Source: Psammoneis japonica (lineage: Eukaryota). From it: a stretch of DNA of 64,000 nucleotides. The notes beneath the pieces are model-generated. The model saw only the letters and a list, made by a program, of their open reading frames with translations. It did no database searches and was not told the DNA's origin. A program made the position numbers and the translations under genes. Positions 21,617 through 60,625 of this stretch are shown here, one piece after another. The number at the start of each line of letters is the position of its first letter. Position 1 is the stretch's first letter. The stretch is from assembly GCA_008632985.1 (NCBI GenBank), contig QPGO01000223.1, positions 1 to 64,000 of the forward strand. Direction: 5' to 3'.

Positions 21617-23027
21617 GCTGATGGTAATAAGAAAATGCTATGCTGCTATAGCAGAGGAAAGAGTCTGATGCTGCTAAGCTTCTGTATGCACAGAGGAGGT
21701 CGAAGCGTAGAGAATAACAAGTCCAGTCAATTCCAGTACTAAGACTGCGTAGAAGTTCACGCACGAATGTCAACAGCGACAAGAGCGATGAATGTATCAA
21801 ACTACAGCGGCAACAGACGCCAATCACTAAGCAGCTATAACACACAGAGGTACAGAACAGCGGTTGCAGTGGATGAGAGTAAGGATGATGATTGAGTCGT
21901 ATGGATGTCAATCGAAAGTCTTCGCTGCTGAGTTTCTGAAAATAATAATTCAGAGAGATTGATTGTTGGGTCTTCTTCGATACAAGCGTTACGAACAAGA
22001 GGCAAAAGTATGACGAAGGCAAGTCAAACCGAACAACACACGCAACAGCCAACTGCAACCGTGAAAGAAAAATCGTGCTTTCGATCAAAGCAAAGTGACA
22101 TGGGCGGTGATTGAAAGCAAGATTCCTACTTTACGTACCAGATACATACCCAAACATACTGGTTTTGTTTGATGAACAGAATTCTATTTTTCACGTTTTG
22201 TTGCGATCAGTCGCTCCTTTCGGATTGGCTGTTGGCGGACATTCTCTCGGCTAATCTTTTCGAAGCTTCAATCTGATTGGCTGACAGACGGGTCGGCTCG
22301 CGATCTCGCTTGCTCTGTATTATTCATGTTTAGGATGATGTGCTTTTGAATTTCTGACTTCTGTCATTTAGTTTGTTGGTTGCAGCTAGCCTGCGAACGC
22401 CAATGATGCCACCGCGTTTGTTGTCTAGCCTCGATGGCTTGGGTGGCATTCACCACAGCTCTCTGCACAAGCCATCCAAAGAAGTTCTGCTGGTTGACTT
22501 GGAACTTGGAAAAGAAACAGGGACAAACAAGGGGGGGCGTGAGGGCGAGGTGGCTTGCCCCCATGCATGTGCCAGGCGCTGAAAAAGAAGATGTGTTACG
22601 ACTTTGTCGTTGTGAAAATTATGAGCTGGTTTAGAGTAGAGAAAATGGGATCGTGCGAATGGGGAATCTTGCCAAATCCCTGTTCGTTCGCATTTGGATC
22701 GCATCAAATCGATCGTGCGTTCGCATTGTGGATCGTGCGAATCAAGCCATCACGCGCCATGCACGAGTGATGTCATCGTGTGGAATCACGCTGCCATCGT
22801 GGGCCAGACGACGGGCCAGTGTGCTTCACACGGATGCTCTCTTGGCATCCTTCTGGAGTTGCCTGAGACCTGGAGCCACGCCCTCCTGTGGTCGTGCTTC
22901 CCAGGTGCGTGTTAACAACACTGCGTTGCCACGCACAAGAGGCTCATGCACGGTCTCGCCGTGTTGTCCAGCAGCGAGGCACACTGCACACTCCCCCATG
23001 ATCAGGGCCATCAAGTGACAGAATGTC

Positions 23028-26000
23028 TTGCTGGTGACAGGGTGCAATCTGCCGTAGATTGTGCGTGTCCATCAGCGCTCCGTTCTGGATGCGCAACGCG
23101 CCGTTGTCACATGCACAGACAACTCTGGCGGGTCCTGCACAGCTGTCAGAACCGCATTTAGAGGATTGTTCCTGTTTGACAAGCACCAACTGCCCTGCGG
23201 CATGTTGATGCTCCTTGCGTTTCTGATTTTCACGCTTGTTGTTTGGGTGGACAAGCTTCTGCTTTCTGGTTTCTGTGTGCTTCCACTTGGCATGATGGGC
23301 AGCAGATGAAACCGCATCGCGTCCGAAGACCAATTGCATGGGACTTGCACACGTGGTCGTGTGTGCCGCAGCTCTAACAGCGAAGGCTGCTGCGGAGAGG
23401 ATGCCACTCCATGGGTCATCTTCGTCCAGTTCCACATCCTGCACTGAAAAGGAACGCACCATGTCACCAAGTGTCTGGTGTGCACGTTCCACTGTGGCAT
23501 TTGCCTGTGGATTCCGTTTGCTTGTGGGTTTCTTCAAAATCCCACAGTCATTTTTAATCATCTGGCTGAATTCTGCCACAAATTCTGTCCCACGGTCACA
23601 AACCACCTGGGTTGGCCACGGATGTCTGCACAGCCACGTTTGTTCCACTACGTTTGCTGCGACGTCTGCGCGTTTCGCAGACACTTCTTTGGTCTCGAAC
23701 CACCCGGTTGCTGGGTCAATCATTGTGACTGCCCACAATTGCAAGGTGTCCTTTCCGCGTCTTTGAATTTTATGTGGCCCCATCATGTCTGTGCACAGAG
23801 TTTCCCATGGAATTGTCTCTGCGACCTTTTCTGGCAGCTTCCCATGACGCTGCGTTCGGCATTTTGTCTTCTGGCATCGATCGCACTTAACGCACGTAGA
23901 ATGCACCGTAGACCTCATGCCAGGCCAATGGAAGTGCTGGGCAACAGATGTTTCCGCACGTGTCTCACCTGGATGACACAGTGTCTCGTGGTGCCATTCA
24001 GTTGGCGGAACCTGCAATGACTGTGGTGCTGCGATTTTGTCCTTATGACAGATTAACTGTCGTGATGACCCTCCCCCACGATGCGCGCGAATGGAGCAGT
24101 CGGACGAGTCCTCAGCTCTTGAGAGCAGGCGCTTGTCCTTTTGTTGTGCTTTTTGAATGCGCTTGAAGCTGACAGGCAGAGACAGCTCATCTTGAGCGTC
24201 TGCATTAAAGGCTTCATGCAAAGGACGACTCGATGGAGTGTCTTTTACATCCGGATTGGCCTCGGAAGGCAAGCTGGGTGCCAGTCGAAGGCGACTAAGA
24301 GCATCAGCGACTGGGTCATGGGTGCCCTTAACACAGCGTAATTCGGGGCCGCATTCTTCGCATGTCAACCGCCAGCGCATGACGCGCTCGGCATTGAATG
24401 CTTTGCACGCAAGATTTTTATGATCAGCACATGTGATTGTACGATGACCAAGGAGAATCGTTCGAAATTCTTTCAACGTCTCCACAATGGCGAGCAATTC
24501 TCTCTCCGTTGTTGTGTGATTTAATTGCGCACCATTGAGCTTTCTGCTGTAAAAGGCGATGGGTTCATTGTCTTGGGATGTGACTGCTCCCAAATGACAT
24601 TTAGAGGCATCGGCATGCATCTCAAAGGGTTCATTAAAATCAGGATGTGACGACAAAACATCATCCGACATCACCCGTTCAACGGTTTCGAACGCCTCGT
24701 CTTCAACGGACGTCCACTCCCACTTGACAGTCTCGCTTGCGAGTCGTGTCAGCGGAGCCAAGACTTCAGAACGTCTAATCCACGTGTCGCGGCAGTGGTT
24801 TGCCATGCCAACAAATGAACGCAGGTCGCGTTCATTGGTTGGGGACTTGTTCCAGACTTGGGTGCACTCACGCGCGAAAAAATGACCCTTTTTGCATGAA
24901 ACGCGCGGTCCACACTTGCGGCACCATTTTCGACAGTAAAAACATAACAATTTACAAATGTGTTGTTATGGGTACATACAGAATTGTCTTGTGCGTGTAC
25001 CCATGTATTCGAAACTGTTGATGGACTCAGTTGTTAGTCGCTAAATTGTACCGTAAGTTGAGAGCTCGAATTTTCCGATGAGCGATTTATATATGCCTAA
25101 ATGTAACTAGAAACATATAAAATATTATTCATAATTAATATTTTGTTTATATACGCAAATACGAGTTACACTCAACGGATCGAATAAAGCATACGTTGAT
25201 TGATAAGTTTAGGACGACGTGAGAAGAAGTGTAGCTCAGCCTACGCAATGGCGTCGACTTCGGACCATTTTTCACGGTTTAAAAGGCATAAACGATTGAT
25301 ACACTTGAATCAGTCGAATATATTGAGGAAATATACATGGTAATAGAAAAGAAATGGTCCTTAGAGGCAAATTGTGAGTGAATAGAGGCTCAATTGTTGT
25401 TGCTGACAGATTTAGCATTATTGTGCCGCGCTGCAGCCTTCAACAAGCATTTTCACTATTGTTGTTGATGACACAGACTATATCAAATACGTAGATCCTG
25501 GTCATGACATTCAATTTTCCATAAGGCTGAAAAAAAGTGGGCCGTCATGGTCACTGAAAGCCATGGCCGGTTTGGCTGTTTGTTTGTTCGAGTTTATTCT
25601 GTTTATTTTACTTAGAAGCCATTGATATGATCAATTTTATTAAATATGTACGGTGTTCAATAAAGCATTAAAAAATTATTTTTTCTGCGAAAAGGGGCAT
25701 GTGCGCGCCACCTAAGTCTGGAACAAGTCTGGGGTCACGATTCGCTCAATGGCGTCGACTTTGTCAGGTGTTGGTCGCATTCCGTCTCTGTCAACCAGAT
25801 GACCCAAGCATTCTAATTGGGTTTGACAGAAGTGAGATTTAGTTGCGTTGACTTTTAGTCCTGCTTTTCTGGACCCTCAACAAAACTTCTTCAAGTTTGT
25901 TGAGGTGATCTTCACAGGTGCCTTTCGTCACGACGAGAAGGTCATCTAAGTGCGTTCGAACGAACGACAGATCTTCAAATGAGCCTGACATGCGTTCTTG

Positions 26001-27140
26001 GAAAATGTCTGGCAAATTGCATGATCCCATGGGCAACACCTGCATCTCATGCTTGCCCCACGGGAAGATGAGCGTGCAGAGCTTCTTGCTGTCAGTGTCC
26101 AATCGGACATGATGGTGGCCCATGTTTAAATCCAGCGATGTAGCCCACACAAAGCCTTCGAGCTTAAGTGGCATGTCTTGGATGTGAGGAATCGGGTGAG
26201 GCAATCGCTCAATCCGTTTGTTCAGCTCTCTGAAATCATCAACAAAGCGTGCCGTTAAATCTTTCTTCGGTGTGACAAATGATGGAGCTGCCCATTGGGA
26301 TCGGTTGATGCGTTTGAGAACACCGATGCGCGCTGGGCGCTCTACTTCCTTACGCAGCGTAGCTTCGCATGCACGAGGTGCTTTACACGGACGAGCATGG
26401 CATGGTTCTACACCCTCCTTGAGTTGGACATGGTGGGGTTCTCCCTTCCATTCTCCCAGTGTCCCATCAAATGAGGACTCATGGCGTTTCAACAGTGCCA
26501 AAAGGTCGTTTTGTTGAACTGTGGAAAGTCCTGTTGCCCCTCGCGTCATGTCCTCGAGGCAGGCCGGCGCGTGCTCAGCGTCTGAAATGTGCAAAATCCG
26601 GTCGGTTTCCAAAGATGAGGCTTCTGGATCTTGAAGATAGAAGGAGGTTTCCACCGCAGCATCTGCGTGCCTCATTGGTGCTTCTCCATTGACCAATGGC
26701 CACTCTGTCATCTGTTCAGAGAAGACAACATCAATGCCTTGTGTCTCCAGAATGTCACGTCCAACAATCACATCGTGCTTGCCCAACTTTCCGTTGTGCA
26801 CGTGGATGGCATGCTTGAGTTCTGCAGTTTCGGATGATTCTGGCAACCGAAATTTAACGGCACAGTCGTTGGACGCACCAAACGAGCCTGCCACCGTAGC
26901 CCGGTTTGTCTCAGCCGTTGAATGGCTTCGCAGACGTTTGCAGCATCGACTGTCGAGTAGAGTGCTGCCAGCGCCACTGTCTGGCAGTGCCTTGACAGTT
27001 TGAGTCTTGCCCTTGCCATGTTTGGCGTTCACAGCTGTGAACAAGATTGGAGCAAGATGAGTCTTTTTAACTCGTTTGCGGGATTGGCCTGCAACACGTG
27101 TACGATGGCAATTCAGTTGTTCATTCATGCATTCATCCAA
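23028..27140 (-). pseudogene. Gypsy pol (copy 1): protease, RT, RNase H, integrase
   Basis: ALPDSGA, WAAPSFVTPKK, DFRELNK, RTHLDD (from YLDD), ADAS, AFYSRKL, TERELLAIVE, HHETLCHPG, DRGTEF, NPQANATVER. Frameshift at ~25860 and MITE insertion. Confidence 0.9.
24844..25729. mobile_element. Non-autonomous TIR element (MITE), 886 bp
   Basis: 21-bp TIR GACTTGTTCCAGACTT(G/A)GGTG and 4-bp TSD TGGG. The empty site is present in gypsy copy 2 (~56575-56590). AT-rich non-coding interior. Confidence 0.92.
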
Positions 27141-27176
27141 TGCATTAAAACTGCCTGTGTTGTGTCGGCCCCCTTC

Positions 27177-28253
27177 TCAGGCGTCCGAATCTTCGGAATC
27201 ACTTGAGTTGAGGTCGCGGAAGTGATTGAGCTCCTCCTCGCGGGCCTTGCGCTTTTTCTGAGCGTTGGCAAAGTGCTCCTCGACCTTCGATCCGATGAGA
27301 GCATTAATGTCTTCCTCATTCCGAGGTTTTGCACCAGGCTTGCCGCCTCCATCATTGGAATGTCCAGTCTTGACACGTTTCACGCGGTGCTTGAGCTGAC
27401 GGCAATCTTCCGCATCATGTCCACAGTTAGTCCCGTGCAGCATGCACGGCTTCTGGGTGTTCCACTGGGTCGTGATCAATGACTCAGGATTGTCCATTCT
27501 ACGTCCCCGCTTACGTGGAACCTCAGCATGTTGGTCCTGGTTACCTTCGGCAAGCTCGACCTGCTCGATGCGCTCGCAGAACTGTGCAAATTCGGCGACA
27601 GCATGCACCAACGGGTCAAAATTCTGTAGCGTCATGAACTTCTGCCATGCGTTCGGCACACCGCACTCGAACACATCGCATGGTTCGTCATTGGGCAATG
27701 GCGCCAGTGTTTCTCCATCCTCCGTCATGGGTGGAAACTGAGAGATGCAGCCGTTAATTTCAACAGCCCTCGCGATGCAGTCACGAGTAGAAACCTCTGC
27801 GGGCTTGCGCATGAAGCGCCGCAGATGACGTTTCTGCAGCAGTGCCGCCCCATTTGGGAAGATGCTTTCCTTTAGCTTCGCGACGCATGCTGCGTACGCA
27901 GCATTGGTTTGGGACACCTGCTTGTCAGCGGCATTGTCAAATGACGTCAGAGCATCGCCCTGCAGCAAGTCACGCATGAGGGCAAATTTCGCTGGCCCGG
28001 TCGTGATGTTTTGTCCTTCGTGCACGCGATCCACGTTGCGTAGAAAGATTGGGAGTGTCTCGCATGTAGCCGCAGAAAGGTGCGGGATGCCCATCTCGTG
28101 CGTTGGACTGTCCGGATCAGCAGGGTTGTTACGCAGCTTGAACGTCTGGCACTCGCCCTGCTGCAGCTCTTTCTTCTCCGGCCATGCGAACGGAATCGGC
28201 GGCATGATCCGCTTCTTCATGGTCGTTTTGAGATTTGTCGGTCCTGCCAACAT
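27177..28253 (-). pseudogene. Gypsy gag (copy 1)
   Basis: 358-aa ORF directly after the 5' LTR with a C-x2-H-x5-H-x4-C knuckle (CMLHGTNCGHDAEDC); homologous to 54136-55140. Confidence 0.85.
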
Positions 28254-29418
28254 TTCGTAGTTTTGTTTCTGTAGATTTCGTTACCTCGCACAACATGCGG
28301 GAGCAACCTGTGCCCCATGTGTGTGCCAGGTGCTGAAAAAGAAGATGTGTTGCAACTTTGTCGTTGTGAAAATTGTGAGCTGGTTTAGAGCAGAGAAAAT
28401 GGGATCGTGCGAACAGGGAATCTTGCCAAATCCCCATTCGTTCGCATTTGGATCGCATTAAATCGATCATGCGTTTGCATTGTGGATTGTGCGAATCAAG
28501 CCATCACGCGCCATGCACGAGTGATGTCATCGTGTGGAATCACGCTGCCATCGTGGGCCAGACGACGGGCCAGTGTGCTTCACACGGATGCTCTCTTGGC
28601 ATCCTTCTGGAATTGCCCAAGACCTAGAGCCACGCCCTCCTGTGGTTGTGCTTCCCAGGTGCGTGTCAACAATGCTGCGTTGCCACGCACAAGAGGCTTG
28701 TGCACGGTCTTGCCGTGTTGTCCAGTGGCGAGGCATGCTGCAGGCTGCTCTGGACCAGCAAATTGGGGATGACTGCCCAACAGCCACCTGCTTTCTGTGC
28801 AGTCCACATCTCATTGACTTTTTCATTGCAGTTGTGCAGTCACTGTGGTTGGCATTTTCCTGCACCACATCTCTTGCTGCTGGCCTGTTCCAACAGCAGC
28901 TCCAGGTGATGTGCGCGCAGGTTTGGCTCCCACCGCTGGCCCATTTTTGCATTTGGTGCAACAAACTCCTTCAAAATTGGTTTTTTTTCAAGTTGAAGGG
29001 TGACTGCACGCCGAGCAAATCTAGCTGCCGAATGGGCTCAGCCACTCACAGTCTTAGTGCGACAATGCGAATGCAACCGACAAGATGCTTCCAGGCCTGT
29101 TGCAACTACAACGGATGCAACAAGTGAGACCAACCGATGGTCATGGTCACTTTTCCACCGATGCCACGTCACAGTCCCGCCACTTCAACTTGTAGAGCGC
29201 ACTGGACAGACTCTGACACATCGGATTTCACTCGGTCCCCTCGAAATGCACCTGACTCGTAAGGCACAATTCAACCCAATGCTGCATCAGTGATCTAGCT
29301 CAAACATCTTGACTCATTGATCGACGTAAAACCCTTGCCAGGGAAAAGCCGCCAATCCTTTGTGCATGGTGTAAACCCTCACTGGGGAAGAAACTCACCA
29401 CCGCTTCACGCATCCATC

Positions 29419-32400
29419 CCAATGCGTGAACTTGTCTAACAGAAAATTTCGCCTGACAGACGACATGACCTTCGTGAATGGATCGCCAAGGTTTGTCTCC
29501 GTTCCCTCCTTTGCAATCCTGACAGTCCCCGCAGCAACAGCTTCGCGGTCACAGTGACATGCAATGGAGTGATGCTTCTTCTTGAGTGTAGACTCAGGAA
29601 TGGAGCAATTCTTGTGGACGGCCTCATTGTCACAGAAGACATTTGTTGGCCCTTCGATCGGTGCTCCAAACATTCGAAGCTTGTGTCGTAGACTCTCTGC
29701 GAGCTCGATGGCATTCTTGAGTGCAACGATCTCTGCTCCAAATGTGCCAGCCTCCACGGCATTGTGATGCTTCGAGTGCCACACAATGGGTGCCCGGTTG
29801 ACAAACATCAAGATGCCTGCATGGCTGCGGTGATTGGCAACATTTCCGGCATGGTTGGCATCCACAAAACAATGTGTCGATGCTGCATCACCTCGAGCTG
29901 GCGGTGCATTTGTCGGAATGGCTTCTCTTGCATCTCGGCAGAAGTCGCGCCAGTCGCACTTCACGAATCGTGATTCATCGATCTTGGGATGAGCCGGATC
30001 GAATGCTGCTTGATGCTTTGGAACCTGTTCAAGGCATGCAAAGATGTGCAATGCCTGTTCCAGATGACCAATGCGAGGGAGAGCGAGGTGAGCAGACATC
30101 AACGAAACCTCCAAATGGATGTCCACTCTGCCGAGTTCTGCCGCCCAAACCAGCACACCAATCAGCTCTTGATGACAGTGAAGTCCTTCAGCGTCCAACT
30201 CGCCAGTGGCATCTAACTCGGGTTTGTGTCCACTGCTTGATGGGGTTGTTGCCTTGCCAGGCAGACATTTCCCCTCCTTGCCAAGCCTGTCCTCTACATT
30301 TTGGACAGCGGACTTGCAGCACTTCTCCGCAGACATTGCCCAACAGGCAGTCCCATCGGCTAAGGTCATCTTGGAGAGCGCAGCACCGAGGTGGGAATCC
30401 GGTTCGGCTGCCTTGTCACCCTTGAGCTTGAACTTGGACCTGATGCCATCCATCGTCTTCATGGGTTCGTGGCCAATCGACAGCACGTCGTCCACGTAAA
30501 CTAGAACGCATTCGTAGTGCTCGAATCCGTCGGGTTTCACCGCAGGTCTCATCCATGCATCCGGATCAGCCTTGCTCGGTTTGTGCCCCAGATCATAAAG
30601 CGTCTCCGCCAGAAAAGCCCTGAATGCTGCTCCGGAGCTCTTCAATCCATGTGGGGCCCTGACCACAATCATGATGCAACCTTCATCTTCGCCAAACTCG
30701 GACCCTGCTCTGGTCCAAATCTTCTCCCTGCAAGGGGCAGTGAGGCAGGCGTTCTGGATGTCACATGCAAAGACTTGCAAGTCATTGAGCGCAGCAAGCG
30801 TCAGTGCAATTCTCACCAAATCCCGAGAGACGACAGAGGAGCAAGTGATGTGTGCGGGGGTTTCAGTGGTGTGGCCTCCAGCCACCGTGCGAGCTTTGTG
30901 GCGGAAGTTTTCTCCCAACTTGACATCAAAAATCATGTGGCACTTCACTTCCTGGAAACCAGGCGCCATGTCTTTAAGCTCCCCTTCATGCTTGTCAAAA
31001 GCAACCCATGCGTTCTTCATCTCCATGCAAATGGCGTCCCACCACAGTGTGTTGCCATTTGCGCGATCGATCTGGATCGCCTCCTTGACACTCTTTGGGA
31101 TCCGCATGCCAAATTTGTGTGTTCGTAGCCAGCACTTCGACTTGACCTTCGCAATGGAACGCTTGCGGGTTTTCATGACATGAGGAACCCACCAAGCAAA
31201 CGCTGCCTCACCCGAGATCTTGCGCTGAATGGCGAACTCGGCAACTTGGACTGGGAAGCTCTCCTTCGCAATCTTCAAGTCGATCCAAGTCGTGCTTCCA
31301 TCCTTCCATTGGAATAAAAGTTCCCATCCTTTGGTGGTCTTGCGCCTCTTCCGAACGCCTCGCTCGGTCTCAAAGAATTCGGATTCAGGAACGTCCCCGT
31401 TGGTGCGGCAATCAATGATCTCATCGAATGAGACGTGCCGGTTTCCATCCTCGTCGATCTGAGCAAACATGTTCATGGCGATGGAGTTAGCAGAGAGCGC
31501 AGCATGGTGCCCATCAGGGTGCTCCACCTCATGCATCCTTGTGTCAAGGATGGGATTGTCATCAGCCGTTCCTGTCGGAACACCATTGGCATCTCTCAAC
31601 CTCTTCGTGACACGAGCAAACTCAGGACCATTGTCATCTTGTGGAAGCGCAACCTCCATGTTAATGTGTCCCCAGTCCGCCGCCTCCGGTGAGGCTTCCT
31701 CGTCTTTCTTATCGTCGTCGTCATTTGCTGCCTCCTCTGAGGATGTGACACGATCACGCTCATCGAGGAATTCATCGTCGTATCCAAGGTAGTCTTTCCA
31801 GTCTTCGGGACTGATCTTACGATCCTCGTCATCGGGGAAATCTTGCTCCTTCAACCGTCGCTTGATCTCCTCGTCAAAACTGTCGAACTCTGCCTTTTTC
31901 TCTTGAGTGGCGGCTTCCAAATTGGTGACTCGTTGGACGGAAGTTCTCGAAATGACACTGCCTGTCTGTGTCAGAACGTAATGCGACATGAGACTCCCTG
32001 TTCTGTGAGACACACCAAGCCACCCACCAAGCTTCTCGTCCCCTGGACCGGCATTCTCCCTGTGCCAGACCCAATCGTAAAATCCAAAGTCGAGGCACTC
32101 CGAGATGTCCACGGTCTCTCCGAGAACGTTCTCCAGTGGCACTCCTGCATCCAAATGATGTGCTCGAAGGAACGTGCGAGACATGGTCTCACATGTCCAT
32201 GTAAATCCGCAGTCCCACAGTCGCCGCGGTGCTTGCTTCTTGACCATGATGCGGAACCACTTACGCCCAACCTCGCGCACAACTCCTTCTGCAGGATTCT
32301 GGTTGTGTCGATCAGGTTCGATGATGTGATGATCCATGCCCTCCTCACGCACGGTCTTCATGAACTCCGTGCCAGGTTTTGTTTGCTCCTTAGATCCGTC

Positions 32401-33681: not shown

Positions 33682-33720
33682 GAAGTTTATGATGCAACCA
33701 AGCAGGGTCCAGCTTGGCAG

Positions 33721-35842: not shown

Positions 35843-35844
<2 letters not shown>

Positions 35845-35872
<28 letters not shown>
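35845..35872. repeat. (AG)n microsatellite
   Basis: About 14 uninterrupted AG units. Confidence 0.95.
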
Positions 35873-35878
<6 letters not shown>

Positions 35879-49050: not shown

Positions 49051-50764
49051 CACACCCATTCATCGGTTAATGGTCAAGAACCCTGCACATTCAAGGATCT
49101 TCGTCGCTGAAGACACACACACATGTGCGTGTCTTCACGGCTGAGAACTTGCACCCACTCTTCGGACTGCGGTTTTGCTGCCACTCTGCGAGCACACCGA
49201 GTCTGTTGCACCTGATCTGCCCCGGACCGCTGGTGCTCTGCAGTTCTGCTGGGTCCACGAGGATGACTGTGAGAGCAAGCAGCCGTGATTGCAGCCTGCG
49301 TTGGGGCGAGGGTGTTTTCCCACGTTTGTTCGTTCGTCCACAGTGCCCAACGCCTGCATCAACTGGCCAGCCTGATCGGGAAATCCAACCGACAAAAAAC
49401 ATGAACGGTTCGGGGGGTCTTGTCCACCTCCAGTCAGCTCACCTGCAGGGGTTTACAACCCGCCACTCCGCTCGCAAGCAACCCAAAAGCGCCGCTGGCT
49501 GCAGGTTCGGACGTGCCGGCACAACTCTGCGGACCAGATGGGAGGTTTGGCACTTGACAACGAACGGGATGGCACAGCCCGGCGACTTCTGAATTTAAGG
49601 TGGTTCAAGATTTCAAGTCAAGTCCATTTCAAGTCAAGTCCATTCTCACCCAAGTTTCAAGTCTGCCTTTGCTTCACAACAAGAATTGCTTGTCCTGACA
49701 CCACTTTTGTCCACCATGGTTCTCACTCGTCAGCAACAAACCGATGGTTTCGAGCACGTTGTTGGAACCGTGCTTGCCCAAGGTGCTGGGAGCCCTCTTC
49801 GTTTGGCTTTGACCCAAGACGGCACAGACTCGCATCAAGAACTGTTCACGTTCATGCCGTCCCAAATCGACTCGCTTGAGTGCGACAACGGCGCCAATGT
49901 GATCCCTTTGCCCCGCGGTTGTAAGAACATGTCAGCAGCTCTAATCAGTCTGTACATTGTCAAAGCACACGAAGGTCTTGACGTTGCCAATGACTCCTCA
50001 TTGTTCGTGCATGATGAGTTCCTTGCCTGCCGCCTCAGTCCCGACTGCATGTCTTCTGTGTCTGTCGGCAGCTCACCCCTCGCACCTCCGCATGTCACCA
50101 ACCCGACCAAGACACACGACCCGGTGCGAGACTTCAAGCGAGGCATCAAGCGTGACTCCACCGCTTTCACGGCTCTCAAATCCGACAAGCAGTGGCACAC
50201 TTGGCACACCTCACTTGTGGCACAAGCCCGTGCCCAAGACGTCAAGTGCACTCTAGACTCGTCGTACAAACCGACCAGCCCCGAAGACAAACTGCTCTTT
50301 GCTGAACAGCAAAAGCACATGTTCGCTGTCTTCGAACGCATCCTTCTCACCGACAAGGGCAAGGCTCTCATTCGCGAAAATGTGGGGTCTTCTGATGCCC
50401 AGACCATCTGCCGCGCCTTGTCTGAGCATGCGCTCACCTCCACCCACGCATCTGTCGAGTCCTCCACCTTGCTCACGCACCTCACCACCGCACGTCTTGG
50501 TGATGGCACTTGGAAAGGTCCGACCCACGGGTTCATCCTTCATTGGCAAGATCAGTTGCGCAAGTGCGAGGCACTCATCCCGGCCAGTGACCACTTCTCT
50601 GAAGGACAGAAGCGCGTCATGCTCGAGAATGCCGCACACCCTGTCGAGGAACTCCGTGCTGTCAAGAACCAAGCTGATCAGCATCGTGCACAGAGTGGCA
50701 AGAGCCTCACATGCGATCAATGCTGTGGCTTGCTCCTCTCTGCGGCTGCTCAATGCAACAGCAT

Positions 50765-51260
50765 GGGGCTTCGACCAGCATAAAATGCAATGTGACACAA
50801 TCATTGACATGTAAAAAACATTGATGTGATTTGTTGATGACGTGCATGCAAGAATGTTGAATGACTGCGTGTGACTTTTTGCGCAAGATTTGCACTGTTC
50901 TATGCACTTAACGAAGAAAATGCTGAGGCAATGCATGGAATGTCTCTCTTTAAGTACGAATTCAAATGAAGGTCATGCCCACGCCTGCCACGCAATTCAA
51001 TCAAACACACGAGCATGTGTGAAGCATTTTTCAAAGACGGAGTTGACAAACGGAGTGTCGACGGTTGAATGTGTGACATCTACAAAAACATCTAAATGGT
51101 TGAAAAGTGTGGACTTTTGTGAGACATTTGTGCATGTAACACATGCAAAACCTGCCATTTGTTTTGGCAATGACCGTCATCGTCAAACAAAGGGGCACAT
51201 AAAATCCAATGCAAAATGTCTGACCGGTGCAACAGGTGCGTTTCTGCCAGTCGTAGCCTC
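50765..51260. mobile_element. Old non-autonomous TIR element (~496 bp, possibly Sola-like) inserted in copia gag
   Basis: Imperfect TIRs: GGGGCTTCGACCAGCATAAAATGCA versus reverse complement GAGGCTACGACTGGCAGAAACGCA. Gag-like sequence resumes after it. Confidence 0.65.
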
Positions 51261-53642
51261 ACACGTTTCAACCCAAGATGACACCTCGAGCTCCCCGACG
51301 TGCCATGTGCGCACACGACGTCTGCTCCGAGGAACCGTCCGACGATGTGTTCTGCAACATTGACAGCGACATTGACGTCCTTCAGGCCAATGCTGCCTGC
51401 ACCCGTGGTCCCAGCCTCGCCGGTGACCAATGGAAATGTCTCCCTCCCGACCACCAACAGATTTGGGATTCGTTGCCCCATTCCTCCAAGGCGATCATCC
51501 TTGAGCATTCTCGTCCGCCTCCCCACAACCCGCGAGCCAGCAACTGCCATGAGTCCGTTGCGGCCAACCTTCACGACCAACGCCTTGGGAGTGACGGTGA
51601 TGTCAACTTGTCCAACACGACTCCTGCTGACTCTGGTGACCCCGCTCCAAATGTGGGTGCCACTTCGGACAATCCCATCCTGGCGCACCTCACCAAGCGC
51701 AAGCCACTGCCACCCGGTGATCTGCAATGTCTGTTGTCTCCTAACCAAGCCCCCAACGCCAGTCAACCGGGGCCATCCGCCGCTCCCTCTACTCCGCCAG
51801 CTGCTGCCGATGACATGGAACTTAACGGCCGCACTTGCCGCCGCGTTGATGACCACAATGTCATTTGCTCTGCCTCTGCTCATCGCTCCACACGCACTGG
51901 TGCTCCAGTCGATCGTGGGGCCAATGGCGGCATTGCTGGCAACAACGTTTGCATCATTGCACGCACCTCTTGCCAAGTCGACGTTCAGGGCATTGACGAC
52001 CATCAATTGGTGGACATCCCCATTGTCGCCGCTGGTGCCGTCATTGAGACCCAGCGTGGTCCCGTCATTGCCATCCTCCATCAGTGCGCATGCACGGGCA
52101 AGGGCAAGACCATCCATTCCTGCGGCCAGCTCGAATGGCACAAACAGGATGTCAACGATCGCTCTGTCAAGGTGCCCAACGGCTTGCAACGTGTTGCCAC
52201 TCCTGATGGCTGTGTCATCCCCATTGACATCAAGGGCGGCCTGCCTTGTGTTGCCATGCGACCTTGCACTGATGCCGAATGGGACACCCTGCCCCATGTC
52301 ATCCTCACCGGTGATGACACATGGGATCCTTCCGTCCTCGATCACTCTGTCACTGACGACGACCAGTGGTGCGACGCGATCTCTGACCTGCAGGACGATC
52401 CCACTGCCAACCCATTTGACGAATGCGGCAACTGCCGTCATCGTGTTGTTGTCAACGAGACCATCATGTCCGCTTCCTTGTCTGCCGATCACGCGTCCGC
52501 CCTCGATGATCACCTCATTCCAAATGACGACGTGTTCTGTGAGTGTCATCCACACGCGATTGACCCCAAGGATGACAACGTTCCGCCCCCGGAGTGCACT
52601 GTGCAGCCCAAGGACCCCCCCTTCGAGTCTCTTCGGCCTTGCTTTGGCTTCCTCCCTGCCGATGCGGTCCGTCGCACTTTTGACTGCACCACGCAGTGCG
52701 TCCGCATGCCCGCCGGCACACACCTTAGGAAGGCCTGCAAATCACCCAACCCCGCCCTTAATGTGCACCGCCGCAACGAGCCTGTCGCCACTGACACCGT
52801 TTGTGCCGACACCCCGGCCGTCGACTCTGGTTGCGCCAGCGCCCAACTGTTTGTTGGCACCAAGTCTACCGTCACTGACGTCTGCGGCACCAAGACGGAC
52901 AAAGAGTTTGTCAACACACTCGAGGATCAGATCCGGGAGCGTGGTGCCCCATCCAAACTCATCAGCGACCGTGCTCAAGTTGAGATCAGCAACAAGGTGC
53001 TCGGGATCCTACGAGCCCTCTTCATCTCCAGCTGGCAAAGTGAGCCTCACCAGCAACACCAAAACTTTGCCGAGCATCAACACCAGACCGTGAAGCGCAT
53101 GGCGAACACTGCAATGGATCGTTTTGGTTTGCCCGCCCACACATGGCTGCTGGCGCTCATGCATGTGTGCTTCACACTCAACCACACAGCATCCCCACAT
53201 CTCCACTGGCGCACGCCCCTCGAGACTCTCACTGGCTCCACCCCGGACATCAGCCCATTGCTTCGCTTTCACTGGTGGGAACCTGTGTGCTTCCACCTCG
53301 ATGACTCCGATTGGCCGTCCGAATCCCGTGAGTTGCGTGGATGCTTTGTTGGCATTGCTGAGCACGTTGGCCACCAGATGACCTTCAAGATTCTCTCTGA
53401 CGAGACTCAGAAGATCCTCTGCCGGTCCAACGTACGATCCGCTGCCACCGATCCTGCCATTCGAAACCTGCGTCTTGATCCTCCTGATGGGGAGCCACCT
53501 GAACCCATCATCAAATCTCGCCATGACGACAACCCCGTCGATTCTCCTGATGGGGAGATCAGGACACCCAAGATGCCAGTTTTCGATCCGCAAGACATCA
53601 TTGGACGCACCTTCCTCATGCAGCCACAAGAGGACAGACAAC

Positions 53643-56600
53643 TGCAGTGTGCCTCGCTGCTGGACAACACGGCGAGACCGTGCGTGAGCCTCTTGTACGT
53701 GGCAACGCAGTGTTGTTAACACGCACCTGGGAAGCACGACCACAGGAGGGCGTGGCTCTAGGTCTCAGGCAATTCCAGAAGGATGCCAAGAGAGCATCCG
53801 TGTGAAGCACACTGGCCCGTCGTCTGGCCCACGATGGCAGCGTGATTCCACACGATGACATCACTCGTGCATGGCGTGTGATGGCTTGATTCGCACGATC
53901 CACAATGCGAACGCACGATCGATCCAATGCGATCCAAATGCGAACGAATGCGGATTTGGCAAGATGCCCTGTTCGCACAATCCCATTTTCTCTACTCCAA
54001 ACTAGCTCACAATTTTCGCAACGACAAAGTCGCAACACATCTTCTTTTTCAGCGCCTGGTGCACACACAGGGCACAGCAATGTCACTCCCGCATGTTGTG
54101 CGAGGCAACGAAATCTACAGAAACGAAACTACGAAATGTTGGCAGGACCGACAAATCTTAAAACGACCATGAAGAAGCGGATTAAGCCGCCGATTCCGTT
54201 CGCACGGCCGGAGAAGAAAGAGCTGCAGCAGGGCGAGCACCAGACGTTCAAGCTACGTAACAACCCTGCTGATCCGGACAGTCCAACGCACGAGATGGGC
54301 ATTCCGTGCCTTTCTACGGCTACATGCGAGACACTCCCAATCTTTCTACGCAACGTGGATCGCGTGCACGAAGGACAAAACATCACGACCGGGCCAGCGA
54401 AATTTGCCCTTGTGCGTGACCTGCCACAGGGCGATGCTCTGACGTCATTCAATGATGCCGCTGACAAGCAGGCATCCCAAACCAACACTGCGTGCGCAGC
54501 ATGCGTCGCGAAGCTAAAGGAAAGTGTCTTGCCACACAGGGCAGCACTGTTGCAGAAGCGTCATCTGCGGCGCTTCATGCGCAAGCCCGCAGAGGTTTCT
54601 GCTCGTGACTGCGTCACGAGGGCTGTTGAAATTAACGGCTGTGTCTCTCAGTTTCCACCCGTGACAGAGGATGGAGAAACACCGGCACCATCACCTGATG
54701 ACGAACTGTGTGACATGTTTGAGTGCGGTGTGCCGAACGCATGGCAGAAGTTCATGACGCCACAGAATTTTGACCCGTTGGCACATGCTGTTGCCGAATT
54801 TGCACAGTTCTGCGAGTGCACCGAGCAGGTCGAGCTCACCGAAGGTAACCGCGACCAACATGCTGGGGTCCCACGTGAGCGGGGACGTAGAACGGACAGT
54901 TCTGAGTCGTTGATCACGACCCAACCGAACACCCACGTGAAATGTGTCAAGACTGGACATTCCAGCAATGGAGGCAGCAAGCCTGACACAAAACCTCGGA
55001 ATGAGGAAGATGTCAACACTCTCATCGAATCGAAGGTCGAGGAGTTCTTTGCCAACGCTCAGAAAAAGTGCAAGGCACGCGAGGAGGAGCTCAATCACTT
55101 CCGCGACCTCAACTTAAGTGATTCCAAAGACTCGGACACTTGCCGACACGACACAGGTGGTTTTAACACATTGGATGAATGCATTGATGAACAACTGAAC
55201 TACCATCGTACACGTGTTGCAGGCCAATCCCGCAAACAAGTTAAAAAGACTCATCTCACTCCAATCTTGTTTGTGGCTGTGAATGCCAAACATGGCAAGG
55301 GCAAGACTCAAACTGTTGAGGCACTGCTGGATGGTGGCGCCAGCAGCACTCTACTCGACAGTCGACACTGCAAACGTCTGCGAAGCCATTCAACGGCTGA
55401 GACAAATTGGACCACGGTGGCAGGCTCGTTCAGTGCGTCTGACGACTGCACCGTTAAATTTCGGTCACCAGAATTGTCCGAAACTGCAGAACTCAAGCAT
55501 GCCGTCCATGCACACAACGGAAAGTTGGGCAAGTGCGATGTGATTGTTGGGGTGTGACATTCTGGAGACACAAGGCATTGATGTTGTCTTCTCCAAACAG
55601 ATGACAGAGTGGCCATTGGTCAATGGAGAAGTGCCAATGAGGCACGCAGATGCTACGGTGGAAAACCTCCTTCTATCTTCAAGATCCAGAAGCCTCATCT
55701 TCGGAAACCGACCGGATTTTGCGCATTTCAGACGCCAAGCACGTGCCGGCCTGCCTCAAGGACATGACGCGAGGGGCAATGGGACTTTCCACAGTTCAAC
55801 AAAACGACCTTTTGGCACTGTTGAAACGCCATGAGTCCTCATTTGATGGGACATTGGGAGAATGGAAGGGAGAACCCTGCCACATCCAACTCAAGGAGGG
55901 TGCAGAACCATGCCACGCTCGTCCATGTAAAGTGCCTCGTGCGTACGAAGCTGCGCCACGTAAAGAAGTAGAACGCCTGGCACGTGTCGGTGTTCTCAAA
56001 CGCGTCAACCGATCCCAATGGGCAGCTCCATCATTTGTCACACCGAAGAAAGATTTAATGGCACGCTTTGTCAATGATTTCAGAGAGCTGAACAAACGGA
56101 TCAAGCGATTGCCTTGTCTGATTCCTCATGTCCAAGATGTGCCACTTGAGCTCGAAGGCTTTGTGTGGGCTACATCGCTGGATTTAAACATGGGCCATCA
56201 TCACATCCGATTGGATGCTGACAGCAAAAAAGCTCTGCACGCTCATCTTCCCGTGGGGCAAGCATGAGATGCAGGCATTGCCCATGGGACTGTGCAACTC
56301 GCCAGACATTTTCCAAGAACGCATGTCAGGCTCATTTGAAGATCTGTCGTTCGTTCGAACGCACTCAGATGACCTTCTCGTCGTGACGAAAGGCACCCAC
56401 GAAGATCACCTCAACAAACTTGAAGAAGTTTTGTTGAGGGTCCAGAAAGCAGGACTAAAAGTCAACGCAACTAAATCTCACTTCTGTCAAACCCAATTAG
56501 AGTGCTTGGGTCATCTGGTCAACAGAGACGGAATGCGACCAACACCTGATAAAGTCGACGCCATCAAGCGAATCGCGACCCCAACCAACAAACGTGACCT

Positions 56601-58851
56601 CCGTTCATTTGTTGGCATGGCGAGCTGCTGCCGCGACACATGGATCAGATGTTCTGAAGTCTTGGCTCTGCTGACACGACTCGCAAGCGAGACTGTCAAG
56701 TGGGAGTGGACGTCCGTTGAAGACGAGGCGTTCGAAACCGTCAAACGGGTGACATCGGATGATGTTTCACCGTCACAACCTGATTTTAACAAACCCTTTG
56801 AGACACATGCCGATGCCTCTAAATGTCAATTGGGAGCAGTCACATCCCAAGACAATAAACCCATCGCCTTTTACAGCAGAAAGCTTGACAGTGCGCAATT
56901 AAATTGCACAACAACGGAGAGAGAATTGCTCGCCATTGTGGAGACGTTGAAAGAATTTCGAACGATTCTCCCTGGTCATCGTGTGATCATGTGTGCTGAT
57001 CATAAAAATCTTACGTACAAAGTGTTCAATGCTGAGCGCGTTATGCACTGGCGGTTAACATGCGAAGAATGCGGTCCCGAATTGCGCCATGTCAAGGGTG
57101 CCCACAACCCAGTCGCTGACGCTCTTGGTCGCCTTCGACTGGCACCCAGCTTGCCTTCCGAGGCTAATCCGGATGTAAAAGACACTCCATCGAGTCGTCC
57201 TTTGCATGAAGCCTTTAATGCAGACGCTCAAGATGAGCCATCTCTGCCTGTTAGCTTCAAGCGCATTCAAAAAGCACAACAAAAGGACAAGCGCCTACTC
57301 TCACGAGCTAAGGACTCGTCCGACTACTCCATTCGCGCGTATCGTGGGGGAGGGTCATCACGACAGTTAATCTGTCATAAGGACAAAATCGTAGTACCAC
57401 AGTCATTGCAGGTTCCGCTAACTGAATGGTGCCACGAGACACTGTGTCATCCAGGTGAGACACGTACGGAAATATCTATTGCCCAGCACTTCCATTGGCC
57501 TAGCATGAGGTCTACGGTGCATTCTACGTGCGTTAAGTGCGATCGATGCCAGAAGACAAAACGCCGAACGCAGCGTTATGGGAAGCTACCAGAAAAGGTC
57601 ACAGAGATAATTCCATGGGAGACTCTATGCATAGATATGATAGGGCCATATAAAATTCAAAGACGCGGAAAGGACACCTTGCAATTATGGGCAGTCACAA
57701 TGATTGACCCAGCAACCGGGTGGTTCGAGATTAAAGAAGTGTCTACGAAACGCGCAGACGTCGTAGCAAACGTCGTGGAACAAACGTGGCTATGCAGATA
57801 TCCGTGGCCAACCCAGGTAGTTTATGACCGTGGGACAGAATTTATGGCAGAATTTAGCCAGATGATTAAAAATGACTATGGGATTTTGAAGAAACCCATA
57901 AGTAAACGGAATCCACAGGCAAATGCCATAGTGGAACGTGTACACCAGACACTTGGTAACATGGTACGTTCCTTTTCAGTACAGGATATGGAACTGGACG
58001 AAGATGACCCATGGAGTGGCATCCTCTCCGCAGTAGCCTTCGCTATTAGAGCTACGGTACACACGACCACGCGTGCAAGTCCCATGCAATTGGTCTTCGG
58101 ACGCGATGCGGTTTTATCTATTGCCTATTTCGCTAAGTGGAAGTGCATAGAAACCAGAAAGCAGAAGCTTATCCACTTAAACAACAAGCGTGAAAATCAG
58201 AAACGCAAGGAGTATCAATATACCGTAGGGCAATTGGTACTTATCAAACAGGAACAATCCTCTAAATACGGTTCTGACAGCTATGCAGGACCCGCCAGAG
58301 TTGTCGGCACGTTGCGTGTCCAGAACGGAGCGCTGATAGATACGTACAATCTACGGCAGATTGTACCCTATCACCAGTAAGACATTCTGTCACTTAACGG
58401 CCCTGATCATGGGGGAGTGTGCAGTATGCCTCGCTACTGGACAACACGGCGAGACCGTGCATAAGCCTCTTGTACGTGGCAACGTAGCATTGTTAACACG
58501 TACCTGGGAAGCACGACCACAGGAGGGCGTGGCTCTAGGTCTTAGGCAATTCCAGAAGGATGCTAAGAGAGCATCCGTGTGAAGCACACTAGCCCGTCGT
58601 CTGGCCCACGATGGTGGCGTGATTCCACACGATGACATCACTCGTGCATGGCGCGCGATGGCTTGATTCGCACGATCCACAATGCGAACGCACGATCGAT
58701 TTAATGCGATCCAAATGCGAGCGAATGGGGATTTGGCAAGATCCCCTGTTCGCACGATCCCATTTTCTCTACTCTAAACTAGCTCACAATTTTCACAACG
58801 ACAAAGTCGCAACACATCTTCTTTTTCAGCGCCTGGCACATGCACAGGGCA
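53643..58851 (+). mobile_element. Ty3/gypsy LTR retrotransposon, copy 2 (same family as copy 1), nested in copia pol
   Basis: 432-bp LTRs at 53643-54074 and 58420-58851, TSD CAAC (53639-53642 / 58852-58855), PPT at 58411-58417. Gag from 54136; pol ends at TAA 58378-58380. Confidence 0.96.
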
Positions 58852-60625
58852 CAACGCCACAGAGCTCGCATCGTCAAGGCCGTCGAAGACCATGAATGGA
58901 AAGTGAGTGGCAATCCCAAGCTCACCAAGTTCGTCTGCTCTGTCAACAACGACAAATGCGAGGAAGTCCTTGCCTGCGACGACATCATGAATCACATTGA
59001 GCAAGAAGACGAAGACACTGCTGTTTGGAAATTTCGATGCATCGTGTCACACGAAGGACCTCTGAAGCCTCATGACCCAACCTGGAAAGGCACAAGCTAC
59101 AACATCATGCTTGAATGGGAAAGTGGGGAGATCACGTCCGAGCCTCTTGCCATCATCGCCAAGGATGACCCCATCACCTGCGCCATCTGTGCACAAGAGA
59201 ACGGACTTCTCGACACTGATGGCTGGAAGCAGTTCCGCACCATTGCGAGGTGCCAAAAGAAGCCATTTCGCATGGCCAACCAAGCCAAGCTTCACTCCTT
59301 CCGCACTGCACCTCGCTGCAAGTGCGGATGCGAAGTTCCCCGGAACTGCAAACACGCCATGTCACTGGACGAACGCAACGGCAACCGCAAATGGGGAGAC
59401 GCAACTAATCTCAAGATGGACCAACTCAAGGAATACGAAGTCTTCCATGACTGTGGGCCCTTCAAGTCTTCCACTCCTCCTGCGGGACACAAGAAGATCC
59501 GAGTGCACCTGGTGTACGACGTGAAACACGACGGTCGCCACAAGGCACGACTCGCAGCCGATGGGCACCTCACGGACGCACCCATCGACAGTGTCTGCTC
59601 CAGAGCAGTCTCCCTCCGTGGCCTTCGGCTGATGATTTTCCTGGCCAAACTCAACGAGTTGGAGACATGGGCCACTGACATTGGCAATGCCTGCCTTGAA
59701 GCCACCACCAAGGAGAAGCTCTGCATTGCAGCCGGACCCGAATTTGGCAAACTCGAAGGACACATCCTTGTCATCCACAAGGCCCTGCATGGACTGCGCA
59801 GCTCTGGTCTCCACTGGAGAAGGGTGACCACCCCGAACTGGACACTTCCGAACTGCTGGGGCCCGATGGCATTCACAAGTTCCAGCCTCTTGTTGGTTCA
59901 CTCCAATGGGCAGTGTCCCTTGGTCGAATTGACATTGCCACGGCCATCATGTCACTCTCTAGCTTCCGAGCTGCGCCCCGTCAAGGCCACTTGGATCATG
60001 CCAAACGCGTCTGTGGGTGCCTCTCCAAGATGCGACACGGCGCTCTCCACCTTCGCACGGAAGAGCCCGACCACTCGGATCTCCCTGCTCTGGCCTGTGA
60101 GTGGATGCATTCCGTGTGCGGCGAAGCAGAAGAGAAGATCCCGAAGGACGCTCCACCGCCCCTTGGCAAGTTCGTCACTGCCACCCACTGCGTCGATGCA
60201 AACTTGTGCCATTGCATGCTCACCGGACGCTCTGTCATGGGAGTGCTCCACTTCCTCAACAAATTCCCGGCTGATTGGTGTCAGTGGGATCGGCGTCCTG
60301 GGAAGGCGATGGGGAAGAACCACGAGGCATCATCATGGTCGAGTCGACAAAACGCGTGTTTTTTGTGCGGAGAAAAAGAGCTCCCGAAAGTGCGCTTCCG
60401 ACCCCTCGGTTTTTGGTGGTTAGAGTTTTAGGGGAGCTGTGGAATAGGAATTTTTACTTATGGAATATACACATTCGTGTGAATGTTAACATTAAAACTC
60501 AACGCACGGCGAAGCCGTGCGCGCACAACCACGCACACACACACAGCTCCCCTACCACAGGGGTGGGACAAAATATCCGGCATTGTCGAATTTTTACATC
60601 AGCATAAATCATAAAATTCAGAACG

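Follow-up and report, generated by a model that had tools for sequence, protein, structure and literature searches.

Hypermutation of TpA to TpG/CpA in transposon-derived DNA of the diatom Psammoneis japonica

The closest described counterpart of the mutation pattern considered here comes from the chlorarachniophyte alga Bigelowiella natans. The main text of a 2026 preprint (Mettrop et al., bioRxiv 10.64898/2026.01.13.699255) reports that 231 of the 302 nuclear mutations found in mutation-accumulation lines fell in two integrated viral regions, that 230 of these 231 were A-to-G or T-to-C changes, and that the GC-biased ones were all on TpA. The same text puts the rate in the viral regions at about 6e-7 per site per generation, ~1000-fold above background, describes an enrichment of reverse transcriptase (RT) and DDE domains among TpA-depleted coding sequences, and proposes an ADAT2 homolog as the agent, citing the DNA activity of amphioxus and trypanosome ADAT2. 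Here, we describe a signature of TpA-to-TpG/CpA hypermutation in DNA derived from transposable elements (TEs) in a 64-kb stretch of the Psammoneis japonica genome (GenBank assembly GCA_008632985.1, contig QPGO01000223.1, positions 1 to 64,000 of the forward strand). We refer to this whole stretch as the window; it holds two copies of a gypsy element, two copia elements, a LINE-like (long interspersed nuclear element-like) element, unclassified TpA-depleted DNA, and host genes.

A full-text literature search returned that preprint (bioRxiv 10.64898/2026.01.13.699255) as the only prior description of the signature. A preliminary description of the window, made from its letters, had proposed an undescribed mutator, and that attribute has to be given up, as TpA-only A/T-to-G/C hypermutation is described for B. 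natans in the preprint's main text. As far as that text goes, the two cases are alike in the change itself (TpA to TpG/CpA only, on both strands), in its target (foreign or mobile DNA, with normal mutation of the rest of the genome, judged here within the 64-kb window), in a rate orders of magnitude above background, and in a footprint of TpA depletion with CpA+TpG enrichment that includes RT and DDE coding sequences. They differ in host, which is a rhizarian there and a stramenopile, namely a diatom, here, and in depth: the preprint's main text gives a Rho TpA of 0.45 for the nucleocytoplasmic large DNA virus (NCLDV) region of B. natans, whereas the footprint here is close to saturation, with observed/expected ratios (O/E) of TpA of 0.07 to 0.24 in unclassified elements and in those of the long terminal repeat (LTR) and LINE-like types. 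The words "context," "flanking," "trinucleotide," and "diatom" do not occur in the preprint's main text, and the terms TpA, dinucleotide, hypermut, and deamin are absent from the main text of the diatom genome and TE papers checked for them. New here are the preference for a pyrimidine at +1, the strand independence of the changes, and borders that are sharp to 100 bp, together with a second lineage bearing a much heavier footprint.

Among other systems, fungal repeat-induced point mutation (RIP) has a comparable outcome: mobile elements are ruined where they lie by dinucleotide-specific transitions affecting both strands, the borders are sharp, and host genes escape. However, RIP changes C to T at CpA and makes TpA, whereas here TpA is destroyed and G+C rises, a multi-copy element of the MITE type (miniature inverted-repeat transposable element) is spared, and the host is a diatom and not a fungus. 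The decay of 5-methylcytosine at CpG is similar in having a palindromic dinucleotide as its target, in the independent decay of the two strands to TG or CA, and in its TE specificity, but the target here is TpA, and within the same copies its loss far outpaces that of CpG. AID/APOBEC and ADAR are deaminase-based innate defenses that also leave context-specific transition clusters in mobile elements; APOBEC, however, converts C to U on single-stranded cDNA and leaves strand-biased G-to-A changes, and ADAR acts on RNA, whereas the changes described here are A:T to G:C, are strand symmetric, and arise at the DNA level after LTR synthesis. Finally, TadA, ADAT2-3, and the TadA-derived base editors convert A to I, which is read as G, with U or T before the edited A; the corresponding target here is T-A*-Y, in which A* is the adenine that ends as G and Y is a pyrimidine. 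We know of no natural TadA or ADAT that is established as a genome-defense DNA mutator.

TpA depletion along the window

Composition was computed by block within the window, i.e., for one sample and one contig stretch, and elements were delimited by self-comparison of the window and by Pfam domains. O/E values over the whole window are 0.29 for TpA, 1.41 for TG, and 1.40 for CA, and AA/TT is not depleted (1.18 to 1.19). Transposon-derived blocks have TpA O/E values of 0.07 to 0.24 and host gene blocks have values of 0.52 to 0.68, with sharp borders at a resolution of ~100 bp: 60300-60399 contains no TpA, and 60400-60499 contains nine. Further, the PhyH gene wedged between TE blocks shows normal TpA. 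As stated in the preliminary description, host genes are therefore spared while the TE blocks carry the signature. We are highly confident that the hypermutation of TpA to TpG/CpA in transposon-derived DNA is real in the form described here.

The blocks and elements underlying these values are as follows; O/E values are given in brackets, and no strand is assigned where none is named.

1-11350: unclassified TpA-depleted block, delimited by composition, self-comparison, and Pfam (68 TpA seen against 740 expected, TpA 0.09; CpG 0.62; TG/CA 1.62)
11600-22555: host control block (TpA 0.52, CpG 1.07)
22556-28742, minus strand: gypsy copy 1 (TpA 0.22 to 0.24), with LTRs of ~430 bp at 22556-22988 and 28313-28742, the target-site duplication AGCC, and the motif HLDD
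24844-25729: MITE-like insert of 886 bp in gypsy copy 1, with 21-nt terminal inverted repeats and TGGGG on each side
28743-29011: spacer between gypsy copy 1 and copia 1 (0 TpA seen against 15 expected; CpG 0.23)
29012-35661, minus strand: copia 1 (TpA 0.16), with LTRs of 223 bp at 29012-29234 and 35439-35661, an RVT_2 domain, the motif APHGL, and one YVDD kept
35662-36600: TpA- and CpG-poor flank (TpA 0.08, CpG 0.21)
36601-38650: host control block (TpA 0.54) with the PhyH-family dioxygenase gene at 36923-37927, minus strand, recognized by Pfam
38900-46516, plus strand: TpA-depleted LINE-like element, with an endonuclease domain at 41179-41586 (E 2.3e-5), the motif HVDD, and a weak zf-RVT match in 44555-46513
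46517-53642: unclassified TpA-depleted DNA in which no TE domain was found, forming one block with the LINE-like element (38900-53642, TpA 0.14)
53643-56999, plus strand: 5' LTR and 5' two thirds of gypsy copy 2, hypermutated (TpA 0.23), with the motifs HSDD and NCTTTERE
57000-58853, plus strand: 3' third and 3' LTR of gypsy copy 2, of which 57000-58560 is almost unmutated (TpA 0.92, CpG 0.99)
58854-60399, plus strand: copia 2 fragment (TpA 0.07), with an RVT_2 domain and the motif ALHGL
60400-63250, plus strand: host control, FAD-binding/berberine-bridge-type (BBE) oxidase gene recognized by Pfam (TpA 0.68)
63300-64000: closing stretch of the window, poor in both TpA and CpG (TpA 0.10, CpG 0.10)

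For the host blocks, CpG O/E is 1.07 to 1.10 in the upstream pair and 0.81 in the one with the BBE gene; it is 0.1 to 0.9 in the TE blocks, whose G+C content is 0.49 to 0.56. The 5% cut-offs of the B. natans preprint are a Rho TpA of at most 0.43 with a Rho CpA+TpG of at least 1.52. Every TE block of the window lies below the TpA cut-off; values above the CpA+TpG cut-off occur in the old remnants (1.77 to 1.93), in block 1-11350 (1.62), and on the left side of gypsy copy 1 (1.53), and the remaining TE blocks, at 1.42 to 1.48, are below it.

Hypermutated DNA is also rich in long stop-free frames on both strands, because TAA and TAG have been destroyed: the window contains 91 stretches of at least 150 codons, one of which, in copia 1, runs to 1441 codons. 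Such stop-free frames in hypermutated copies will mislead gene finders.

Signature, direction, and timing of the changes

The two gypsy copies allow the signature to be read column by column. A 130-bp comparison from the preliminary description, 57781-57910 on the plus strand against the reverse complement of 23513-23642, was reproduced exactly: 9 of the 130 columns differ, all of them within TpA of copy 2, five as TA/TG and four as TA/CA, and of the 10 TpA that copy 2 has here, 9 are affected and one, within TTAA, is not. The probability that all nine differences would fall by chance on the 20 TpA positions among 130 is 4.8e-8. Over the full copies there are 431 mismatches, comprising 305 of TA versus TG/CA, 68 of CpG versus TpG/CpA, 42 other transitions, and 16 transversions; the enrichment of substitutions at TpA, on which the earlier claim depended, is thus present. 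Both strands are hit, again as proposed earlier, with TG:CA outcomes of 54:59 in copy 2 and 97:92 in copy 1. A runs test on the order of TG and CA gave no strand runs (p 0.42 and 0.97), and no strand-coordinated clusters were seen between the gypsy copies. This means that sites are hit one at a time, not in long tracts along one strand. In the state matrix, none of the 141 TA dinucleotides of copy 2 faces CG, and there are no TA-to-CG double changes, as is expected if the first hit destroys the target.

The direction of change was examined in an alignment of 60 outside gypsy homologs from public collections with the window copies, using columns with at least 80% Tyr. Of 21 such conserved-Tyr columns in copy 1, 20 read His or Cys (15/16 in the integrase part and 5/5 in the RT part); in copy 2, 10 of 19 do, making 30 of 40 cells for both copies together. 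Conserved His (17 cells) and conserved Cys (14 cells) were all kept, none having become Tyr. Compared with the sequence of the Ty3 RT structure, GYHQI is changed to GHHHV, GKYEY to GKHEM, and YLDD to HLDD. The share of Tyr is 0.1 to 0.8% in the open reading frames (ORFs) of mutated TEs, 2.2% in the largely spared ORF gypsy2_b, and 2.3 to 5.7% in host ORFs; in the gypsy pol homologs it is 2.9 to 4.9%, all normal (best 120 of 1801 and of 2488 matches). Searching with the mutated copy 1 as query returned largely the same homologs, with identities of at most 58% among the matches listed. Given these identities and the normal Tyr content of the homologs listed, the species' own copies are not in that public protein collection. 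A scan of metagenome DNA returned a single weak locus (L001, 30% identity), which was not used. In the four-LTR alignment, many sites have TA, TG, and CA in different copies; TA is therefore the ancestor at these sites, this being the sole option with one kind of change.

The motif changes quoted in the preliminary description were all found in place:

25941-25952, minus strand: HLDD in gypsy copy 1
56362-56373, plus strand: HSDD in gypsy copy 2
24498-24521, minus strand: NHTTTERE in gypsy copy 1
56902-56925, plus strand: NCTTTERE in gypsy copy 2
59782-59796, plus strand: ALHGL in the copia 2 fragment
30643-30657, minus strand: APHGL in copia 1
43331-43342, plus strand: HVDD in the LINE-like element

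As read from these alignments, the direction is TA to TG/CA, i.e., A:T to G:C. The Tyr polarity, the comparison with Ty3 RT, and the LTR sites with TA, TG, and CA agree on a direction opposite to that of RIP, which had also been the earlier view. The host genes had first looked fungal (TPR_10/12, BBE, and PhyH), which would suit ordinary RIP, or CpA deamination, with its polarity misread and CA/TG ancestral. This explanation was refuted, as the polarity tests run the opposite way, TpA is depleted (0.07 to 0.24) and not enriched, and the host is a diatom; the chance left to it is negligible.

The gypsy copies also indicate when and on which molecule the changes were made. Gypsy copy 1 is flanked by a matching 4-bp target-site duplication, and the presence of AGCC on each side identifies it as a single insertion. 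Its LTR pair, compared over 433 columns, differs by 8 TG/CA doublets, 6 sites with TA versus TG/CA, 7 CpG events, and 1 other event, such that 14 of the 22 LTR-LTR events are TpA events. In addition, NYTTTERE has become NH.. in copy 1 but NC.. in copy 2, and the copies therefore changed independently. The change is made on DNA, after LTR synthesis; the DNA-level action proposed earlier is confirmed by the LTRs of this one insertion, which differ at 14 TpA sites.

These observations bear directly on RNA-level A-to-I editing of TE transcripts by an ADAR- or ADAT-like enzyme, fixed by reverse transcription. Most of the affected elements are retroelements, a gypsy paralog appears in an RNA-like sequencing run (X2, below), and the Discussion of the B. 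natans preprint notes that ADAR favors a U ahead of the adenosine it edits. However, the strands are changed equally here, whereas editing of sense RNA gives one type of change, and neither the 14 TpA differences between the LTRs of one insertion nor the NH.. versus NC.. outcomes of the two copies fit a change fixed before integration. Moreover, depletion is strongest in old remnants and in unclassified DNA that is not of the retroelement type, and the B. natans mutations, according to the preprint's main text, arise de novo in integrated single-copy DNA. RNA editing is hence highly improbable.

As a proxy for the ancestor, we used the segment 57000-58560 of copy 2, which is essentially unmutated. 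Copy 1 has 78 of the 92 TpA of this segment converted (85%), while differing at 30 of 1185 other positions (2.5%) and at 11 of 192 CpG positions. The rate excess at TpA over other positions is at least 70-fold, a conservative figure because the other positions include divergence older than the insertion; judged from the two LTRs of copy 1, the excess could be closer to 1000-fold, a value resting on a single background change. TpA O/E fell from 0.92 to ~0.23 in the gypsy copies and CpG only from 0.99 to 0.89 to 0.95; TpA loss is thus much faster than CpG loss in the same copies. CpG decay forms a second, slower component, accounting for 68 of the 431 gypsy differences, and older remnants have lost both TpA and CpG (CpG O/E 0.10 to 0.23).

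Two public sequencing runs, X1 and X2, come from one sample, which is the same as that of the assembly, and X1 is possibly the source of the assembly. Run X1 (DNA) has a k-mer depth of ~62 on host genes and reproduces 4360 bp of host sequence with 0 differences. A 215-bp X1 contig over the TpA-free spacer (28743-28956) has a depth of 52, 0 other letters, and 1 gap, and of the 31-mers in 17001-27000, where TE sequence makes up 45%, X1 contains 77%. The summed depth of X1 over gypsy is 10^4, and the gypsy family therefore has very many copies. Run X2 is RNA-like, as judged from spliced contigs with GT..AG introns over the ISWI gene described below. One X2 contig belongs to a gypsy paralog; it covers 27120-27545 with 28 differences in 426 nt, and its joint from 27545 to 28254 skips 708 nt. 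Some copy of the gypsy family seems to be transcribed.

A sequencing or assembly artifact, in which a TE-specific modified base would be miscalled and the true sequence would be TA, gains from the fact that the runs found share their sample with the assembly. Against it stand the agreement of X1 with the host region, with the TpA-free spacer, and with most 31-mers of 17001-27000, the normal TpA read in the MITE-like insert and in one gypsy segment of the same assembly, and the same signature obtained from Illumina reads in B. natans, as given in the main text of that preprint. The chance of an artifact is slight, on a par with that of RNA editing. As a check on this possibility, which the preliminary description had raised, the reads go part of the way: they agree with the assembly over host DNA and the TpA-free spacer, but they come from the same sample and are not independent of it.

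Two sequences within the gypsy copies lack the signature. The MITE-like insert has a TpA O/E of 0.80, a G+C content of 0.38, and terminal inverted repeats that are 95% complementary, and five X1 contigs join 24839 to 25730, i.e., they represent other gypsy copies without the insert. It is multi-copy by summed depth and of the nonautonomous DNA transposon type, and it is without TpA hypermutation. Gypsy copy 2 is a mosaic, hypermutated in its 5' two thirds and almost pristine in its 3' third, and the 4 to 5 bp on its two sides are unlike each other (CAAC/ACGC), i.e., there is no target-site duplication. Because of this mosaic structure and these flanks, copy 2 probably arose by recombination between an old copy and a young one, and LTR-divergence dating is meaningless for it. 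Since the MITE-like insert and the gypsy 3' segment are unmutated, being repeated is not sufficient for mutation; which sequences mutate may depend on their age, length, class, or chromatin state. The term "repeat-restricted" used for the process at the outset is accordingly not supported, given the multi-copy MITE-like insert (0.80), the segment 57000-58560 (0.92), and a B. natans region that is single-copy according to the preprint's main text.

Target context and candidate agents

The context of the target was derived from TE-block composition and from the individual conversions; the baseline for trinucleotides was the host-block frequency, which is not the true TE ancestor. TE-block O/E is lowest for ATAT (0.01), ATAC/GTAT (0.01), ATAG/CTAT (0.03), ATAA/TTAT (0.08), and GTAC (0.08) and is higher for CTAC/GTAG (0.13), CTAG (0.15), CTAA/TTAG (0.20), GTAA/TTAC (0.23), and TTAA (0.35). 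In TE blocks, ATA/TAT has 4% of its host-block frequency, GTA/TAC 15%, CTA/TAG 29%, and TAA/TTA 40%. By our own arithmetic, the tetranucleotide O/E values fit independent (multiplicative) half-sites. Where the site is YTAY/RTAR, changes hit the Y-T-A-Y adenine 45 times and the opposite-strand adenine 13 times (binomial p 3e-5), which makes 5'-T-A*-Y the target, with each strand read separately. On the mutated strand, the +1 base is C in 45 cases, T in 28, A in 26, and G in 17, while T at -1 is strict; counted by site, TAT is depleted still more strongly than TAC. The preference at +1 is for T or C over G and for G over A. ApA is barely hit, with 12 A/G differences after A versus 152 after T.

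The last result bears on error-prone patch repair or translesion synthesis in heterochromatin (Pol eta-like, at WA motifs), which would misinsert G opposite T at TpA and which had been among the mechanisms named at first. Pol eta errors favor A:T to G:C at WA, and the CpG decay in TE blocks could recruit repair. However, ApA is not hit (12 versus 152), and AA/TT O/E stands at 1.18 to 1.19; there are no strand runs or patches, and near-complete conversion of ATAT and ATAC (O/E 0.01) is hard to achieve by misincorporation. This candidate fits poorly, and we consider it very unlikely.

We propose instead that an enzyme deaminates adenine to hypoxanthine in DNA at T-A*-Y, where hypoxanthine would be read as G. 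Each strand is hit independently and equally often, leaving TG or CA at random, and recruitment to silenced or foreign DNA would proceed via chromatin marks or small RNA. The agent would most likely be a polynucleotide deaminase of the TadA/ADAT2 type. The natural tRNA substrate of TadA/ADAT2 has U before the edited A. ABE3.1, an early DNA-acting TadA variant, prefers YAC according to PMC12703980. A TadA/ADAT-like deaminase, already a candidate in the preliminary description, still fits best, and we put adenine deamination by an enzyme of this type at close to an even chance. Stramenopile-specific deaminase-SAM-Tudor proteins are on record in PMC3239186 and could be further candidate agents, in which Tudor could read chromatin marks; we mention them as a lead only.

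The altered base might also be thymine. A dioxygenase of the TET/JBP type would oxidize the T of TpA in silenced DNA to 5-hydroxymethyluracil (5hmU) or 5-formyluracil, which would mispair with G; the resulting T-to-C change would appear as TA to CA or, from the other strand, as TA to TG. 5-Formyluracil gives A:T to G:C, and dinoflagellate 5hmU is enriched at TpA. The data are symmetric in this respect, as the 45:13 choice is equally readable as T* in R-T*-A-R (R, purine), and a palindromic target, equal TG and CA, and the absence of strand runs fit a mark on duplex DNA. What speaks for adenine is that the only published case, as far as its main text goes, proposes adenine deamination, that the strict T before A and the C or T after it resemble TadA-type substrates, and that no such dioxygenase or modification was seen in the window. 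Thymine oxidation is therefore an unlikely alternative, with a small share of the probability.

A second alternative that retains the palindrome is decay dependent on N6-methyladenine (6mA), an A:T equivalent of 5-methylcytosine decay in which 6mA, maintained on both strands at palindromic TpA of TEs, would be deaminated to hypoxanthine, either spontaneously or by a 6mA-specific deaminase. It would account for strands that are hit equally and independently and for additive half-site effects. The gradual nature of the loss, with younger copies keeping more TpA than older remnants, and the coincidence of TpA loss with CpG decay in the same blocks (CpG O/E 0.1 to 0.9) are also in its favor. However, we know of no eukaryotic adenine methyltransferase with TpA specificity, and the 6mA motif known from eukaryotes is ApT; the dependence of strand choice on the base after A (45:13) points to an enzyme that reads a strand and not to a symmetric mark. 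We rate this route as improbable to the same degree as thymine oxidation.

Several points weigh against adenine deamination of TE DNA by a TadA/ADAT2-type enzyme, or against parts of this reading. Two kinds of multi-copy sequence, the MITE-like insert and the 3' part of gypsy copy 2, are unmutated, and the process may no longer be active. Run X1, coming from the sample of the assembly, is not independent support. The +1 rule is built on 58 informative conversions in one element family and on composition against a host baseline. The altered base may be A or T, and the sequence would fit either, because Y-T-A*-Y on one strand reads as R-T*-A-R on the other. No deaminase gene is encoded in the 64-kb window, as judged by Pfam on the window ORFs. 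ADAT substrates have G, A, or C at +1 and not T, whereas TAT is the most depleted here. Finally, the link to B. natans draws on the shared signature only.

We take the system described here to be probably the same as the TpA-only hypermutation of B. natans. Going further, we tentatively suggest, while giving the idea somewhat less than an even chance, that diatoms and chlorarachniophytes share a dedicated chromatin- or RNA-guided defense enzyme that deaminates adenine, or converts A:T in another way, at 5'-TAY-3' of mobile and foreign DNA and that is widespread in the stramenopile-alveolate-rhizarian (SAR) lineages.

Neighboring sequences and implications

The genes and relics of the window not covered above are the following.

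1362-2594, within block 1-11350: tandem array of ~280-bp units, shifted copies of which are 81 to 88% identical
6019-7407, minus strand: weakly recognizable remains of a class-III (BioA-like) aminotransferase; the match to Pfam Aminotran_3 (E 1e-5) does not reach the curated cut-off
14958-15878, plus strand: tetratricopeptide repeat (TPR) gene, a host control, recognized by Pfam
~16451-20620, minus strand: ISWI-type SNF2 ATPase gene, recognized by Pfam and spliced in run X2

The SNF2 part of the ISWI gene has 84 to 88% identity to diatom ISWI proteins and ~66% identity to those of oomycetes, the named matches being from Cyclostephanos, Skeletonema, Odontella, Phaeodactylum, and Seminavis. The gene is covered by a spliced X2 contig of 3746 nt, the joints of which skip 17389-17479, 19004-19085, 19132-19222, and 20416-20619 with GT..AG on the gene strand, and in diatom ISWI homologs an HMG box adjoins the SNF2 and SLIDE domains. 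The host genome is a large, TE-rich diatom genome.

Block 1-11350 had been labeled CACTA-like, a label for which we found no support: the 25 ORFs of the block scanned with Pfam contained no transposase or other TE domain. Over the unclassified and LINE-like blocks together, Pfam on 49 ORFs gave only the endonuclease domain, the weak zf-RVT match, and the weak aminotransferase match. The ~280-bp tandem units at 1362-2594 differ chiefly by TG/CA doublets (19) and CpG events (18). In the aminotransferase relic, the stretch DEIVTG.GRSG was aligned to 3dod; a non-TE gene copy or a foreign gene may have been hypermutated too.

The stretches 28743-29011, 35662-36600, and 63300-64000 combine TpA O/E values of 0 to 0.10 with CpG O/E values of 0.10 to 0.23 and TG/CA O/E values of 1.8 to 1.9. 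Probably, they are what is left of older elements that took up copia 1 and gypsy copy 1 as insertions, with the first two belonging, again probably, to one and the same remnant. Together, the three stretches form an age series for both decay processes.

For diatom genomics, the immediate consequence is that TE annotation and LTR-divergence dating are badly biased unless TpA and CpG sites are masked. The T-A*-Y specificity can guide the hunt for the enzyme among ADAT2 paralogs and the stramenopile deaminase-SAM-Tudor proteins recorded in PMC3239186, and a natural DNA adenine deaminase, if this reading is true, would be of direct interest for base editing. The finding in a diatom means that TpA hypermutation is not a quirk of one alga, and it may be old or widespread in SAR lineages. 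If a shared defense enzyme of this kind exists, it would be a natural DNA adenine editor, an A:T mirror image of RIP, that shapes the G+C content, the coding capacity, and the decay rate of transposons in the major phytoplankton of the oceans.

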